Sequence record: NC_101837.1
DNA length: 64,000 bases
Reading direction: 5' to 3' (one strand)
Source of the DNA: a phage
Of the stretch, positions 1,882-60,392 are shown piece after piece. The translations under genes were made by a program, and so were the position numbers. The notes under the pieces were generated by a model. The model was given only the letters and a program-made list of their open reading frames with translations. It searched no databases and was not told where the DNA came from. Positions within the stretch are counted from its first letter, which is position 1; each line of letters starts with the position of its first letter.

Positions 1882-3066
1882 TTAAGCTTTAGCCAAAATG
1901 GCGCTAAACTCTTCACCAAACTCTTTTACAATCTTCATCAGGTTTGGGTATGCTTTGATCAGCTGAGCAACAATCTTGTCACGCCCTTTACCGATAAGCA
2001 AGGCATTTCCTAAGGCATTAGGTTTCATCATCGCCATAAAGACTGAGAATACAAAATCTCGGTTCTCGTCCTTGAAGTTTTCCCAAAGGAAATCGAGGAA
2101 GTTTGCCACGCAGCTGACAAGATCTTCGTCTGAGATACTTGCATTTTCCATCATATTACGAATAGCGATACAACCTTCAGATCCAAGAATCCACAAAATG
2201 TCTGGCTGCTTAGGACCTACGTATTCTTTGCAGCCACCTGCCATAATCCTACCGATTTCCGGTAAATTGCGTTTCTTGGTGTGGTATGTCCAGATCTCTA
2301 CCGCTGCAGTGTGACCAATAGCACCTTGCAGAAGAACACGGGCCATAGCGTCAGAAATAATACCACTGTCAAAATCGTGCAAGATGTCAGATGCAGCAAC
2401 CCAAGATCGTGGTGTGGCAAAAGATGGACAATTAATCTCAGCCATAGCCTCATAATTATCAATAGCTGATGGAACTCTTTTCAGATACCCAATTACAGAG
2501 GAGTGAACCCCGTTGAGGAATGCGTAGTCCTCAATAAACACCTCTGCATTGCTTGTAACCTCTACAATGATAAAACGGTTAGCCAGAGGGGCTTCGAGCG
2601 CCGAAAGAACCGCACCATCTGTAGAACGGTTACCCGCAGCCACAAAAACAGAACCCTTAGGGAATGCATAGGTGCCGCACTTGTGGTCAAGCATAATTTG
2701 CATTGCAACCTTTTGCAGGTAGTTATCTGCATGAGTGAGCTCATCCAGAAAGATAATTCCGCTCCAGTCAGGATCCGCAGGCCAAAATTCTGGAATTGCA
2801 AACACTGTACGTGTAGTTCCATCCGCTTCTACAGGGATAGGTAGCCCAGATAAGTCGGCAGGATCTTTATCTGACAGTCGCACGTCAACAAGGTTGTCAT
2901 CTCGCTCACCGAACATATTATCAGCGATCTGCTTCATCACCTGGCTTTTACCCACACCCATTGGTCCCAAAATTAGGACAGATCGGCTATGACGTTGGGC
3001 AAACTGAATGATAGCTGGCAACTCACGGACAGTGATTTGACCACTTTCAAATACGTTTCTTGACAT
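1882..3066 (-). CDS. MoxR-like AAA+ ATPase (CobS/RavA-type)
   Basis: 394 aa; Walker A LILGPMGVGKS, Walker B IIFLDELTHA, sensor AAGNRS; start overlaps stop of upstream gene. Confidence 0.65.
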   Translation of the reverse strand: MSRNVFESGQITVRELPAIIQFAQRHSRSVLILGPMGVGKSQVMKQIADNMFGERDDNLVDVRLSDKDPADLSGLPIPVEADGTTRTVFAIPEFWPADPDWSGIIFLDELTHADNYLQKVAMQIMLDHKCGTYAFPKGSVFVAAGNRSTDGAVLSALEAPLANRFIIVEVTSNAEVFIEDYAFLNGVHSSVIGYLKRVPSAIDNYEAMAEINCPSFATPRSWVAASDILHDFDSGIISDAMARVLLQGAIGHTAAVEIWTYHTKKRNLPEIGRIMAGGCKEYVGPKQPDILWILGSEGCIAIRNMMENASISDEDLVSCVANFLDFLWENFKDENRDFVFSVFMAMMKPNALGNALLIGKGRDKIVAQLIKAYPNLMKIVKEFGEEFSAILAKA

Positions 3067-4663: not shown

Positions 4664-5559
4664 ATCCCCGCATAAATTAAACTTGTATCAGTATACTTCT
4701 TTAATGGGTAAATATCCTGTCCATAGATGCAGTCATTAAACACCTCATCTACCCAAAGGCTACACTTATATCCCATCATTTCTAAAACACCCATCTCTTC
4801 TTCGGTAAACTTATCACCGCTCTTGCAAGATGTCAATACCTCATTCTGTACTCTTGCTACCTCGAAGCGGTTATTGGCAATATCGCTATTGGCGATCAAA
4901 TACTCACCTAAAGGGTGTGCGGCATTAAAGATGCACAGTGGGCGGTTGACGTAATAGTCTCCAGGTGTATAAAAATTATTGAGGTCTTTCACTAGAACAT
5001 TCTTATCAGTCACTTCATTTATAACATCATGCATATCGCACATCTTTATATGTTTGAGGATTCCATCCCCCATCACAAAATAAAAACTTGCTGAGGCACT
5101 TTCGGCATAGATCTTACTAGATCCGTTGTAGTTGTATTTTACTCGGATGCTAACGGGGGTTTTTCCTGTCGCGTTAGCCATCATCCAAAGAAATGGCAGC
5201 TCATACTTCTCCTCTGAGGAAACAAAAGGTGAGGTAGCCAGAGATCGAAAACCTCCAGAGAAGTTGAAAGTTACAGAACCGCTCCGGCGGTATGATACCG
5301 CGTATTCTACTTTTATATCGACGTACCCGTTGGAATAGGTGTGTCCTTCATTATCTAAATATGTCCACTTATCAGACCCAGATACCAATCTACGCTCAAT
5401 AACCTTCATCACTACAGGAATTAGTGGGTTGGTACAAACCGCTTTTGAAGTAGCTTTATCATCTAAAGCCTCGTAAATTGCAGAAAGGATGTCCCCAGCT
5501 GAAAGATTGGTTGTTATGTCCTGTTTCCACCGCGTACTAAAACTGTTAAGATTTGCCAT
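4660..5559 (-). CDS. hypothetical protein (first gene of minus-strand early operon)
   Basis: 299-aa ORF; AGGAG upstream of ATG; immediately downstream of a sigma70-like promoter. Confidence 0.45.
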   Translation of the reverse strand: MANLNSFSTRWKQDITTNLSAGDILSAIYEALDDKATSKAVCTNPLIPVVMKVIERRLVSGSDKWTYLDNEGHTYSNGYVDIKVEYAVSYRRSGSVTFNFSGGFRSLATSPFVSSEEKYELPFLWMMANATGKTPVSIRVKYNYNGSSKIYAESASASFYFVMGDGILKHIKMCDMHDVINEVTDKNVLVKDLNNFYTPGDYYVNRPLCIFNAAHPLGEYLIANSDIANNRFEVARVQNEVLTSCKSGDKFTEEEMGVLEMMGYKCSLWVDEVFNDCIYGQDIYPLKKYTDTSLIYAGI

Positions 5560-5599
5560 AAGTAAGTGCTCCTATGTTAGTTTTCTTTCGAATGGGTGC

Positions 5600-5628
5600 A
5601 CTATATTGTGGAGTTAGAGTAAAGTCAA
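5600..5628 (-). promoter_or_regulatory. sigma70-like promoter (TTGACT-17-TATAGT) for minus-strand operon
   Basis: -35 at 5623-5628 and -10 at 5600-5605 read on minus strand, 17-bp spacer. Confidence 0.45.
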
Positions 5629-5641
5629 CACGTTTTTGATG

Positions 5642-5670
5642 TTGACATCTGTTGAGACAATTGATACGAT
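5642..5670 (+). promoter_or_regulatory. sigma70-like promoter (TTGACA-17-TACGAT), divergent from the minus-strand promoter
   Basis: -35 5642-5647, -10 5665-5670; the two -35 hexamers form an inverted repeat GTCAACA-N9-TGTTGAC (5624-5646). Confidence 0.4.
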
Positions 5671-5701
5671 TTCTTCACTTACAGAGCACGAGAGACGACT
5701 C

Positions 5702-6679
5702 ATGAATCTTGAAAAATATTATACACCAGAAGAGTTAGAGCGCTTGCTCAAAAAATATAGACGCAAACAGAATAACGCACGGAAACGAGATATAGAGTTC
5801 GACCTGTCATGGGAAGAATACCTCCTATTTGGTAAAAAACTTTTAGGGGAGGGGGTATGCGACTACACCCTTATACCTTTCGACATGCACACAGATGAAA
5901 ACGGACTGGGAAATCCTTTCTACCCATCTCTGGAGCGGATAGATGATGAAGGTCCTTACGCAATTGATAATTGTTGTGTGGTAGGGTTGAGGTGCAATGC
6001 TCTGAAAGACTGTCTGGTAGATAAAAAGACTGCAATCCTGATTAAAGACAAAACTGATCGAAAAATTGTCCAGCAGATGATGCTCCACCTGAGCGAAGAG
6101 CGTATGGAGAAATTGAAAGGTGATTATACTTTTGAAGATTTCATCTTGCAATACGGGACAGAAGAAGATAAACTAGCACTATTTGACGAAGAGGAGGAAG
6201 ATATGTCACCAATGCAGGACTTTAAAAATTTCATGGCTGATCGTGCAGCCAACAAACACATTTCAGACATCGTAAACGAGACTGTGGCAGAAGAAATTGA
6301 AGAACAGAACTCTGAAGAGGAAAAAGATCCTCAGGAGGTCGAAGAGGAGATTGCAGAAGAAGTTCCTGCACTGCCTGATGATGTTGAGATTGCTAAGGCT
6401 TACACTTTCTATTGTCAAACGTTCTACGATGCAGGTATGAAAGTTGATCTGTCGTTCAGCCAATTTAAGAGTTCGTATATTCGCAAATGCTGTGCTTTAA
6501 CTGGTGAACGTCTCGGAGCTGGACTTAAACCCCTGTTGGTGACCGACTGGAATAAAGGTTTCACTAAAGGAAACTTTATGGTAGTATCTCCAATTATGGA
6601 GAAAGCTATGACAGATCTTATGAAGACCACCCGCATGACAATGACCGAGTTGGCAGGTATTTTCAAACACGTTAAATAA
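5702..6679 (+). CDS. hypothetical protein with two repeated HNH_3-like modules and an acidic linker
   Basis: ORF track 5636..6679 begins at a TTG inside the promoter; first ATG after the promoter is 5702; repeated segments CDYTLIPFD...SLERIDDEGPYAIDNCCVVGLRCNALK and CALTGERL...LLVTDWNKGFTKGN; Glu/Asp-rich linker. Confidence 0.4.
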   Translation: MNLEKYYTPEELERLLKKYRRKQNNARKRDIEFDLSWEEYLLFGKKLLGEGVCDYTLIPFDMHTDENGLGNPFYPSLERIDDEGPYAIDNCCVVGLRCNALKDCLVDKKTAILIKDKTDRKIVQQMMLHLSEERMEKLKGDYTFEDFILQYGTEEDKLALFDEEEEDMSPMQDFKNFMADRAANKHISDIVNETVAEEIEEQNSEEEKDPQEVEEEIAEEVPALPDDVEIAKAYTFYCQTFYDAGMKVDLSFSQFKSSYIRKCCALTGERLGAGLKPLLVTDWNKGFTKGNFMVVSPIMEKAMTDLMKTTRMTMTELAGIFKHVK

Positions 6680-6712
6680 TGACAGGGGCCAATGGCCCCT
6701 TCTGGAGTTTTA

Positions 6713-8173
6713 ATGGATAGCAGAAGTTCAGAAATCATTGCCTCACAGAAAGATGATGCCCTGAGAATGTTGCAGGCTGCACGTATGTATCTCCTTGAAA
6801 AGCTGCCGTTTTATGGCACACTGCTGTCAGGGTTGCAGTTCGTAGAAAACCACACATGGTGCTCCACCATGGCAACCGACCATAAACGCATTTATTACAG
6901 CCCTGAGTTCATTATGGGATTGGCTGATGAACGCAAGGCTATTCTTAAGGCTTCTCTAACTGACGAGCAGTTTGAGATGGCTGAAGTTTTCTATTCCCCA
7001 AAATCTGTGAAAGAGGTGGCCTTCCTTCTGTCACATGAGGTGGGGCATATTATCTGTGATCACCTGGTCCGTGGTAAAAGCTTTGAGCCGGAACTGTTCA
7101 ATATTGCTTGTGATCACGTTATCAACACAGGTCTTGTGGTTGACTTTAGCAAGCCTCCTTGTGTTTTCTTCCCGAAGGGGAAAAGCACTACGTTCGTGAA
7201 AGGCAAGCCTTTTGGCTTCTTAGCTAACTGCTACTGCGACATGAAGTTTCATGGATGGATTGCTGAGAACGTCTATGCAGTTCTTGATAAGCAAAGAGAT
7301 CAGAATAACGGTAAAAGTAAGAGCGGTAAAGGTGAGAACTCTCAAGGAGATAAGCGACAAACCGATGATCACATGAGTGGGAACGGTGGCACCAGTGATG
7401 ATCTTGGAAAGGCTATGGGGTATGATCAGCCACAACCTGTAATCAGCCAATCTGATAAAGATCAGGCCATGCAGGACTCTGGTGACATGCTTGAGGCAGC
7501 AATGCAAGCTTCCGGAGGTCGTTGCCCTGAGGCGGTTCGTGAGTTTGTCAAGAATAGAGGTAAGCCTGTAATCAATTATATAGACATCATCAAGCAGCGT
7601 ATGTTGTCTAAAAGAAAGGCCGAACTGACCTACAGAAAACCTGGTCGCCGATCTGGGTCTTTGACCAGCACAATGCGAAAAGTCGGAGCTATAAACAAGA
7701 ACCAGCACGTTATTGTTCCTGGTCGTAATCCGGAAAACACTATAGATATTGTGGTGGCTTTAGACGTTTCTGGCTCGATCTCTCAAAGAACTTTAAAGAA
7801 AATGTTCAATGAAATCACCGGATTGTGCAATCTGTATAAAGAATTTAAGGTTACAATGTTCTGTTGGTCAACTGAGGTTGGAGAGGTTAAAGTATACACT
7901 CGCGGCAACATAGACGAAATGATCAACTATGAGGTCCACTCAACATGGGGAACAACAGCTGCTTGCGTGTTCGAGTATCTGGATGCCAACATACCAAATG
8001 CAAAAGATGTCATCGTCCTGACCGACCTATACTTTGAGCATAACTTTGAACAAAAGGCTGTTGACAACAAGTGGAAAAAGTACGATACTTTATGGGTTCT
8101 AACCGAAGGGTATAATAAAAATTATATCCCTAGCTTTGGTAAAACTGTGGAATTAATCGAGTACGCTAAGTAA
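6713..8173 (+). CDS. von Willebrand factor A domain protein with N-terminal HExxH metallopeptidase-like domain (DUF2201/CobT-like; usual MoxR partner)
   Basis: HEVGH motif; MIDAS motif ALDVSGSIS in C-terminal half; ATG 6713 preceded by TGGAG; upstream ATG 6692 sits in loop of hairpin 6685-6699. Confidence 0.6.
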   Translation: MDSRSSEIIASQKDDALRMLQAARMYLLEKLPFYGTLLSGLQFVENHTWCSTMATDHKRIYYSPEFIMGLADERKAILKASLTDEQFEMAEVFYSPKSVKEVAFLLSHEVGHIICDHLVRGKSFEPELFNIACDHVINTGLVVDFSKPPCVFFPKGKSTTFVKGKPFGFLANCYCDMKFHGWIAENVYAVLDKQRDQNNGKSKSGKGENSQGDKRQTDDHMSGNGGTSDDLGKAMGYDQPQPVISQSDKDQAMQDSGDMLEAAMQASGGRCPEAVREFVKNRGKPVINYIDIIKQRMLSKRKAELTYRKPGRRSGSLTSTMRKVGAINKNQHVIVPGRNPENTIDIVVALDVSGSISQRTLKKMFNEITGLCNLYKEFKVTMFCWSTEVGEVKVYTRGNIDEMINYEVHSTWGTTAACVFEYLDANIPNAKDVIVLTDLYFEHNFEQKAVDNKWKKYDTLWVLTEGYNKNYIPSFGKTVELIEYAK

Positions 8174-59579: not shown

Positions 59580-59656
59580 TGGTCTCCACGGAGTGATTCG
59601 AACACTCGACCTCCTGATCCCAAATCAGGCGCTCTACCAAGCTGAGCTACGCGGAG
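59580..59656 (-). tRNA. tRNA-Pro (anticodon UGG), CCA encoded
   Basis: by-eye cloverleaf: acceptor CUCCGCG/CGUGGAG (C1-G72), D-stem GCUC/GAGC, anticodon loop UUUGGGA, T-arm GAGUG-UUCGAAU-CACUC. Confidence 0.75.
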
Positions 59657-59667
59657 TATTTACTATT

Positions 59668-59742
59668 TGGTGGCCCTGGGTGGAATTGAACCACCGTCTG
59701 GCGATTATGAGTCGCTTGCTTGAACCTTCCAGCTACAGGGCC
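59668..59742 (-). tRNA. tRNA-Met or Ile2 (anticodon CAU), CCA encoded
   Basis: acceptor GGCCCUG/CAGGGCC, anticodon loop CUCAUAA, T-arm GGUGG-UUCAAUU-CCACC; D-stem has one mismatch. Confidence 0.65.
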
Positions 59743-59743
59743 T

Positions 59744-59819
59744 TGGTGCTGATGGCAGGACTTGAACCTACAACCTATTGATTACAAATCAATTGCACTA
59801 CCGATTGTGCTACATCAGC
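59744..59819 (-). tRNA. tRNA-Thr (anticodon UGU), CCA encoded
   Basis: acceptor GCUGAUG/CAUCAGC, D-stem GCAC/GUGC, anticodon stem AUUGA/UCAAU, loop UUUGUAA, T-loop UUCAAGU. Confidence 0.8.
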
Positions 59820-59824
59820 AAAAA

Positions 59825-59923
59825 GGTGCTAGGCGATGGAATCGAACCACCTATGTATTCAACGACTACCTCGTCTATTTTCAGGATTAAAAATCCTCGC
59901 CCTTGCCAAAGGGCTTACCTAGC
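59825..59923 (-). tRNA. atypical tRNA-like gene (possible anticodon UUU; ~30-nt extra arm)
   Basis: canonical T-arm GGUGG-UUCGAUU-CCAUC and 7-bp acceptor GCUAGGU/GCCUAGC, D-arm GCCC-UUUGGCAA-GGGC, anticodon region AGGAUUUUUAAUCCU, but ~97 nt long. Confidence 0.4.
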
Positions 59924-60021
59924 TCAGTATGTTGACCATGTTGCTAGTCGGCGATGACGACTGTAACATTTGATAATCCGGTTCTGCTTCCGGCTTTCGC
60001 TTAATTACAAGGTCAACAATG

Positions 60022-60112
60022 TGGCGGAGAGTAATGGAATCGAACCATCATCGAGTCATCCTCAACGGGACGGTTTTCAAGACCGCTTGAGCACCATTGC
60101 TCCCTACCCTCC
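60022..60112 (-). tRNA. tRNA-Ser (anticodon UGA), type II, CCA encoded
   Basis: acceptor GGAGGGU/ACUCUCC, anticodon arm GCGGU-CUUGAAA-ACCGU, extra arm UUGAG-GAUGA-CUCGA, T-loop UUCGAUU; D-arm spacing non-canonical in my parse. Confidence 0.55.
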
Positions 60113-60226
60113 TTTATAAATTATACTGATAATGACACTGATTTTCGAGCAGTTAGTGACTAGTATAAACGACGATAAATATCAATGCCATTATCTGTAT
60201 TATTTATGCATCTAAAAATATAAATT

Positions 60227-60313
60227 TGGTGGGGAGTGGTGGAGTCGAACCACCCGAGTCGCAATGACAATAGATTTACAGTCTACACCGCTACCTCTAC
60301 GGGATAACTCCCC
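60227..60313 (-). tRNA. tRNA-Tyr (anticodon GUA), type II, CCA encoded
   Basis: acceptor GGGGAGU/ACUCCCC, anticodon arm GUAGA-CUGUAAA-UCUAU, T-arm GGUGG-UUCGACU-CCACC; D-arm spacing non-canonical. Confidence 0.6.
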
Positions 60314-60317
60314 AATT

Positions 60318-60392
60318 TGGCACCCCGTACTGGACTCGAACCAGTGTCAACGGCTTAGAAGGCCGCTGCTTTATCCACTAAGCTAACAGGGC
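60318..60392 (-). tRNA. tRNA-Arg (anticodon UCU), CCA encoded
   Basis: acceptor GCCCUGU/ACGGGGU, D-arm GCUU-AGUGGAUA-AAGC, anticodon arm GCGGC-CUUCUAA-GCCGU, T-arm ACUGG-UUCGAGU-CCAGU. Confidence 0.7.

Follow-up and report, generated by a model that had tools for sequence, protein, structure and literature searches.

The window analysed here is a stretch of 64,000 nucleotides from a phage (sequence record NC_101837.1). One of its genes, at 5702..6679 on the plus strand, starts with an ATG at 5702, ends with a stop codon at 6677-6679 and encodes 325 amino acids, a Srd-related protein of two PacI-type His-Me-finger modules. The protein is a tandem duplication of one small PacI-type module of the HNH superfamily without zinc sites. 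As a PacI-like His-Me finger that is also Srd-related, it belongs to known kinds of protein but has an architecture of its own. The gene belongs to an rV5-like Vequintavirus. All parts of the protein are encoded on the plus strand. The N module (5702..6130, residues 1-143) comprises N-terminal helices, a beta-beta-alpha core and a helical extension. Further helices belong to the folded N-terminal domain (6131..6190, residues 144-163) and are poorly conserved beyond close relatives. A disordered acidic linker (6191..6367, residues 164-222) connects this domain to the C module (6368..6676, residues 223-325), a second PacI-like fold in which the active-site residues are lost.

An in-frame ATG at 5639, 21 codons upstream of 5702, gives rise to a form of 346 amino acids in many database entries. 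This ATG overlaps the -35 hexamer of a promoter-like site, and 5702 is therefore the better and likely start. The N-terminal extensions of the longer database versions (window 5636-5701) are probably annotation artefacts. The promoter-like site is of the sigma-70 type (5642..5670, plus strand). It has TTGACA at 5642, a 17-nucleotide spacer and an extended -10 element, TG-TACGAT, ending at 5670, with 10 of 12 matches to the consensus. The site lies 32 nucleotides upstream of the ATG at 5702. The transcript start predicted from it is near 5677, also upstream of this ATG, which is preceded by a Shine-Dalgarno-like element, GAGAGA (5690-5695, plus strand). The divergent intergenic region is 142 bp long and contains a mirror promoter-like site (5628..5600, minus strand) that faces the leftward genes. 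The sequence is only suggestive of a sigma-70-like promoter at 5642..5670 for the gene. The gene would then be the first of a rightward unit transcribed by the host RNA polymerase.

Two modules of one fold

The AlphaFold2 model of the protein was built on 8 homologues. It has two confident domains, residues 1-163 and 223-325, separated by residues 164-222 with a predicted local distance difference test score (pLDDT) below 50. How the two modules lie relative to each other is uncertain (predicted template modelling score 0.47). In the N module, strands 75-79 and 91-95 are followed by a helix at 96-106. This order of a beta-hairpin and a helix resembles known members of the His-Me finger superfamily (HNH, beta-beta-alpha-metal).

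The initial annotation had described two repeats joined by an acidic stretch. A pairwise BLASTP comparison of the N half and the C half was not significant (E 1.1 and 2.5). Separate alignments and profiles of the modules were made from 103 diverse homologues with two modules. The two profiles aligned in hhalign with a probability of 97.3% and an E value of 2e-11 over 81-83 columns. Hidden Markov models (HMMs) from closer relatives of each half both matched one and the same region of the single-module proteins P0120 (E 2e-13 and 1.5e-11), P0124 (E 2.9e-21 and 2.2e-12), P0154 and P0163. One stretch of the T4 protein Srd also aligns with both halves of the protein, with E values of 4e-7 and 1e-3. 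The profile alignment, the cross-matches and the Srd alignment together indicate that the duplication is real and old, and the two-repeat architecture stands. By sequence, the N and C modules are homologous at a level detectable only by profiles. The shared motif that had been proposed for the halves holds in part: both have C-x-[YL]-T-G, one Asp and one Asn. S-L-E-R-I-D and N-x-x-K are confined to the N half and replaced in the C half by P-L-L-V-T-D and E-K-A-M.

The placement of each half followed from profile searches and structure prediction. A profile of the full-length protein gave only noise against the PDB sequences. The N-module profile, made from 41 sequences, had one match only in the PDB sequences, to PacI, with an E value of 0.12. 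Aligned with the PacI segment in hhalign, it reached a probability of 89% and an E value of 2.3e-6 with the register unchanged. The N module is homologous to PacI residues 30-122 and to T4 Srd residues 7-142. The C-module profile had no signal against the PDB sequences or the PacI sequence. The C module is tied to PacI solely by its predicted structure. Both halves are confidently folded in the model. A Foldseek search of viral models matched phage proteins named 'anti-sigma factor' and HNH proteins of the giant viruses Fadolivirus, Yasminevirus, Pithovirus, Medusavirus and Pandoravirus. PacI-like proteins form group 20 of the His-Me fingers and are predominantly proteins of giant viruses (Jablonska et al. 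2017, PMC5714182).

Domain databases did not recognise the protein. Searches of Pfam at E<=10 found no family for it beyond one noise match, and no HNH_3, NUMOD or AP2 domain. Among 34 diverse family members, Pfam at E<=0.01 gave scattered single-member matches only and no HNH, AP2 or sigma family. The HNH_3-like repeats of the initial annotation have no counterpart in either search. NCBIfam had nothing relevant for the protein and no match for T4 Srd and three other members (5 tested). Taken over the protein, T4 Srd and the family members, the Pfam, NCBIfam and PADLOC scans gave nothing relevant. A match to RNase_J_C (E 0.13) in the disordered linker and a match to Rv1109c (E 0.006) mostly in the linker were both rejected as noise.

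An intact and a degenerate active site

PacI has no general-base histidine; a tyrosine of the inter-strand loop substitutes for it, and one Asp and one Asn bind its single metal ion (PMC5714182, PMC4081073). The corresponding motif of the N module (5927..6007, plus strand, residues 76-102) reads S-L-E78-R79-I-D81...Y86...N90...N99-A-L-K102. In the register of the profile search and hhalign, PacI D92/R93/D95/Y100/N104/N113/K116 correspond to E78/R79/D81/Y86/N90/N99/K102. This aligned residue set is 88-100% conserved among the 103 diverse homologues. R79, Y86 and N90 are present in all 103, as is an acidic residue at position 78 (Glu in 90, Asp in 13). N99 is found in 99 homologues, with His in 4 more, K102 in 100 of the 103 and Asp or Asn at position 81 in 91. 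Three further residues of the module are similarly retained: K22 (96/103), R29 (99/103) and C53 (102/103).

Y86 sits in the inter-strand loop of the model, residues 80-90, at the position of PacI Y100. It is therefore the candidate counterpart of the PacI tyrosine that acts in place of a general-base histidine. E78 and N99, at the positions of PacI D92 and N113, would occupy the HNH positions of the metal-liganding Asp and Asn; the ligand role of the PacI residues is itself inferred from motif positions. No histidine is present where HNH enzymes have their general base, at the end of strand 1. All 103 homologues have Arg79 there, and the C module has Val280. The initial annotation had correctly seen that an obvious His-Asn-His triad is missing. 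Its reading of the protein as a degenerate nuclease fits only the C half. As judged from the alignment, the N module is complete in comparison with PacI apart from the zinc sites. The aligned residue set lacks nothing but the two Cys4 sites, and the module is therefore no decayed HNH domain.

The motif region of the C module (6491..6610, plus strand, residues 264-303; register from hhalign) keeps only C264, T267 and G268 (C264-A-L-T267-G268), D282 and N291. The equivalents of E78, R79, Y86, N99 and K102 are L279, V280, F287, E300 and M303. The tyrosine and the Asp/Asn metal positions of the PacI type are present in the N module and absent from the C module (Phe287; L279, E300). From these residues, the C module is a predicted pseudo-module: the fold is kept and the active site is lost. 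The first interpretation of the locus thus holds for the fold superfamily and for the missing histidine. It fails for the specific family and the degeneracy of the N half, and equally for the homing origin and the DNA mimicry treated below.

PacI (PDB 3ldy/3m7k) is a homodimer on TTAATTAA with two Cys4 zinc sites. In the protein described here, the zinc ligands are gone except C53, and two modules are joined in one chain, the second of them predicted to be inactive. Sequence similarity to PacI is marginal for the N module and absent for the C module. T4 endonuclease VII, Hpy99I, McrA and the HNH domain of Cas9 use a histidine as general base and usually have a Cys4 zinc site. In contrast, the protein has an invariant arginine at the histidine position and no zinc site.

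Relation to T4 Srd and proposed function

T4 Srd (gene srd, NP_049634) is the closest characterised relative, and Srd families are among the PHROG matches of the protein. Its residues 4-142 align with residues 8-143 of the protein (BLASTP E 4e-7, 24% identity), and the N-module profile matches it with an E value of 4e-22. The elements C-x-Y-[ST]-G, S-L-E-R-x-D, G-Y, N and N-x-x-[KR] are common to the N module and Srd. Sequence comparison thus places the N module with its helical extension as the homologue of the N-terminal half of Srd. Both proteins come from lytic myoviruses of E. coli. Srd is an early protein of T4; the gene described here lies behind a host-type promoter-like site. According to papers that cite Qi et al. 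2015 (PMC13232886, PMC4980113, PMC7430671), T4 Srd associates with the catalytic, N-terminal half of RNase E and promotes the decay of host mRNAs. The literature search found no paper linking Srd to the HNH or PacI fold and no work on the rV5-type gene. The C-terminus of Srd (LSFIDKLKLKRGYPLN) was considered as a cryptic second module and rejected; neither HMM nor hhalign supported it.

The family is large. Its profile was searched against 1.84 billion cluster representatives (50% identity) and yielded 1790 matches at E<=1e-3. Of these, the top 150 mostly match the profile in two stretches. Among the best 150 representatives and the closer relatives, 115 proteins have the architecture of an N module plus a C module. 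Elsewhere in the family, lineages carry a single module or a tandem of two intact ones. The N-type profile matches both tandem modules in P0116, P0129, P0139, P0142, P0152, P0165 and P0167, and both modules retain the motif [DE]-R-x-D...Y...N in P0116, P0129, P0139 and P0152. As these tandems of sister lineages keep the motif in both modules, the arrangement of one intact and one dead module is a derived state. A recurring change is thereby documented in the family, from tandems of two intact modules to one intact and one dead. With about 1790 representatives at 50% identity, the family so defined is covered by no model in Pfam or NCBIfam. P0141 (470 amino acids) and P0157 (515 amino acids) carry a C-terminal extension of about 200 residues past the two modules.

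The preferred reading is that of an early host-takeover factor acting on nucleic acid, most plausibly by a Srd-like acceleration of RNase E-dependent host mRNA decay. Its probability is put at about 0.5. The structural and evolutionary part alone, with the PacI-type tandem, the homology to Srd and the synteny, is very likely correct. The protein may be synthesised early from a host-type promoter. The conserved pocket of the N module may engage the phosphodiester backbone and a metal ion, and possibly cut the backbone. The dead C module may stand in for the second subunit of a PacI-like homodimer or dock a partner protein. The flexible, fast-evolving acidic linker would tether the two modules. 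By homology with T4 Srd, the outcome would be a faster decay of host mRNA through the catalytic half of RNase E. The placement with PacI and the near-invariant motif residues in the N module and in T4 Srd provide a concrete active-site hypothesis that can be tested with point mutants. It bears on how Srd-like proteins speed up host mRNA decay, which is still unexplained structurally.

Several observations weigh against this reading. Taken by itself, the sequence link to PacI is weak (E 0.12 in the search of the whole PDB). Residue numbers for PacI come from counting along the alignment, and the residue mapping was likewise made on alignments, not on inspected coordinates. Both Cys4 zinc sites of PacI are missing in the N module, which retains C53 only; C98 shows no conservation. 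In the CxxC...CxxC pattern, the second Cys has given way to T56, and T/G and A/V predominate at positions 95 and 98. The C-terminal half of Srd (residues ~143-248) matches neither the C module nor the linker in HMM and hhalign searches. The protein has an isoelectric point (pI) of 4.7 and a net charge of -23; T4 Srd has a pI of 10 and a net charge of +27. Promoter-like sites are no more numerous in the 142-bp intergenic region than in shuffled sequence.

An autonomous nuclease is a possible but rather doubtful alternative. The N module would be a zinc-less, tyrosine-dependent nuclease of the PacI type, and the whole protein an intramolecular pseudo-dimer with a single active site that cuts or nicks host DNA or RNA early and independently of RNase E. 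The strong purifying selection on the PacI-aligned residue set fits this, as do the sister tandems with the motif in both modules. The giant-virus HNH proteins align over about 300 columns, and a 98%-identical protein was named 'type II restriction endonuclease' by one source. However, the structural zinc sites of PacI are absent, and nuclease activity has been reported for no family member. The destabilisation of mRNA by Srd reportedly required RNase E, which also counts against an autonomous nuclease. The very acidic character of the whole protein is not typical of DNA enzymes, but its C module taken alone is basic (pI 9.0).

A wider version, held with similarly little confidence, concerns the entire family. 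The Srd family including T4 Srd may be a large phage radiation of zinc-less, tyrosine-using nucleases of the PacI type, with an active N module. In the rV5-type protein, the intact N module would then pair with the dead C module as a single-chain pseudo-dimer with one active site, and the protein would be a nickase or RNA endonuclease. If so, the stimulation of RNase E by Srd would depend at least in part on its own nucleic-acid chemistry and not on allosteric binding alone. The idea that Srd-type proteins make 5'-monophosphate RNA ends that feed RNase E is kept only within this tyrosine-nuclease version. RppH is said to have been still needed for one substrate, which argues against the 5'-monophosphate ends.

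Equally tentative is the opposite view, an inert pseudo-nuclease that is only a binding scaffold, which takes in the degenerate DNA binder of the initial annotation. The acidic linker would then be a DNA mimic or an autoinhibitory tail on a basic surface that binds nucleic acid. The protein has neither the histidine nor a zinc site, the C module has clearly lost its active site, and inactive His-Me fingers such as Smad MH1 exist (PMC5714182). The invariance of R79, Y86 and N90 and the near-invariance of N99 and K102 are, however, hard to explain for a pure scaffold.

The extreme acidity noted in the initial annotation is real: residues 164-222 include 22 D/E and 4 K/R among 59 residues, a net charge of -18 beside the basic C module. 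The proposal of a DNA mimic is unsupported. Among close relatives, the modules are 94-98% identical and the linker only 64%, with insertions and deletions; among more distant relatives, the values are 62-77% for the modules and 19-39% for the linker. The net charge between the module cores is -22 here. Across the family, it extends from -22 to +8 around a median of -1, and just 10 of the 115 proteins have a value of -10 or lower. Outside the Vequintavirinae clade, only a few relatives have the long acidic linker. Disorder and rapid change therefore point to a clade-specific tether or tail and not to a conserved DNA-mimic surface. As the linker is disordered, variable and mostly non-acidic across the family, any mimicry would be a clade-specific add-on. 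A DNA-mimic protein of the Ocr/ArdA type was considered and rejected. Ocr and ArdA display folded acidic surfaces. Unlike these, the linker has no predicted fold, and a folded surface with a conserved acidic array is absent.

An anti-sigma factor or sigma-70 decoy that binds the host RNA polymerase or competes with sigma-70 is highly improbable. Its only backing is a label carried over from the record of T4 ('Srd anti-sigma factor; postulated decoy of sigma factors RpoD and RpoS') and the names of PHROG 4592 and 1400, which are among the PHROG matches of the protein ('Srd anti-sigma factor' and 'decoy of host sigma70'). Against it, Pfam gave no match to a sigma-70 region even at E<=10, the fold is a nuclease fold, and the sole experimental function reported for Srd concerns RNase E, not sigma.

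Distribution and genomic context

The region 5500-6900 has 99.9% DNA identity to Escherichia phage slur16. The gene is present in all 117 phage records matched by megablast, at a coverage of at least 80%, and almost all of them are rV5-like Vequintavirus. Phages of Salmonella, Klebsiella, Cronobacter, Erwinia, Serratia and Aeromonas encode full-length homologues. The records name the gene 'anti-sigma factor', 'HNH endonuclease', 'anti-termination protein' or 'hypothetical protein'. The first three of these labels are putative for this family. Some of the matching records (MG065646, MG065647, MG065658, MG065659 and MG065674) are named 'Campylobacter phage' with the host Campylobacter jejuni. 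They are 98-100% identical to rV5-like phages of E. coli at the locus, and the host label looks doubtful.

Seunavirus GAP31 has a homologue with 40% protein identity at the same divergent junction. In both GAP31 and the window, the other arm carries a MoxR ATPase cluster, and the downstream gene is about 1.45 kb long. Neither module has a paralogue elsewhere in the 64-kb window, where the gene is single-copy, and its G+C content is like that of the flanking genes. The single copy, the synteny and the neighbour-like G+C content therefore indicate a vertically inherited core gene and not a homing endonuclease. A free-standing homing endonuclease or its remnant, the origin initially considered, would account for the HNH-superfamily fold and for the label 'HNH endonuclease' in RefSeq and in PHROG 3118 (a full-length match, E 8e-111), but with one copy at one junction in all the close records and in Seunavirus, and with none of the domains sought in Pfam, it is highly unlikely.

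On the opposite arm of the divergent junction, the open reading frame 1882-3066 (minus strand) encodes a MoxR ATPase according to the AlexBoehm annotation. The downstream gene (6713-8173, plus strand) encodes a DUF2201_N metallopeptidase domain and a VWA-like domain. Together they make up a MoxR-VWA pair, split by the promoter region.

A GC-rich hairpin, GGGGCC-AAT-GGCCCC, is located at 6684-6700, 5 nucleotides past the stop codon. The hairpin is perfect, with an RNA folding energy of -17.7 kcal/mol and a z score of -2.8, and covers 6692, the earliest position at which the next gene could start. It is possibly a stabiliser of the 3' transcript end, an attenuator or a mask of the downstream start, and its link to the 325-residue gene is uncertain.

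Far from this locus, the window has a cluster of seven tRNA genes at 59580-60392 on the minus strand (Pro, Met, Thr, Ser, Tyr, Arg). For one member of the cluster, a tRNA-like gene of 99 nucleotides at 59825-59923, ARAGORN called a four-base anticodon (atcc).
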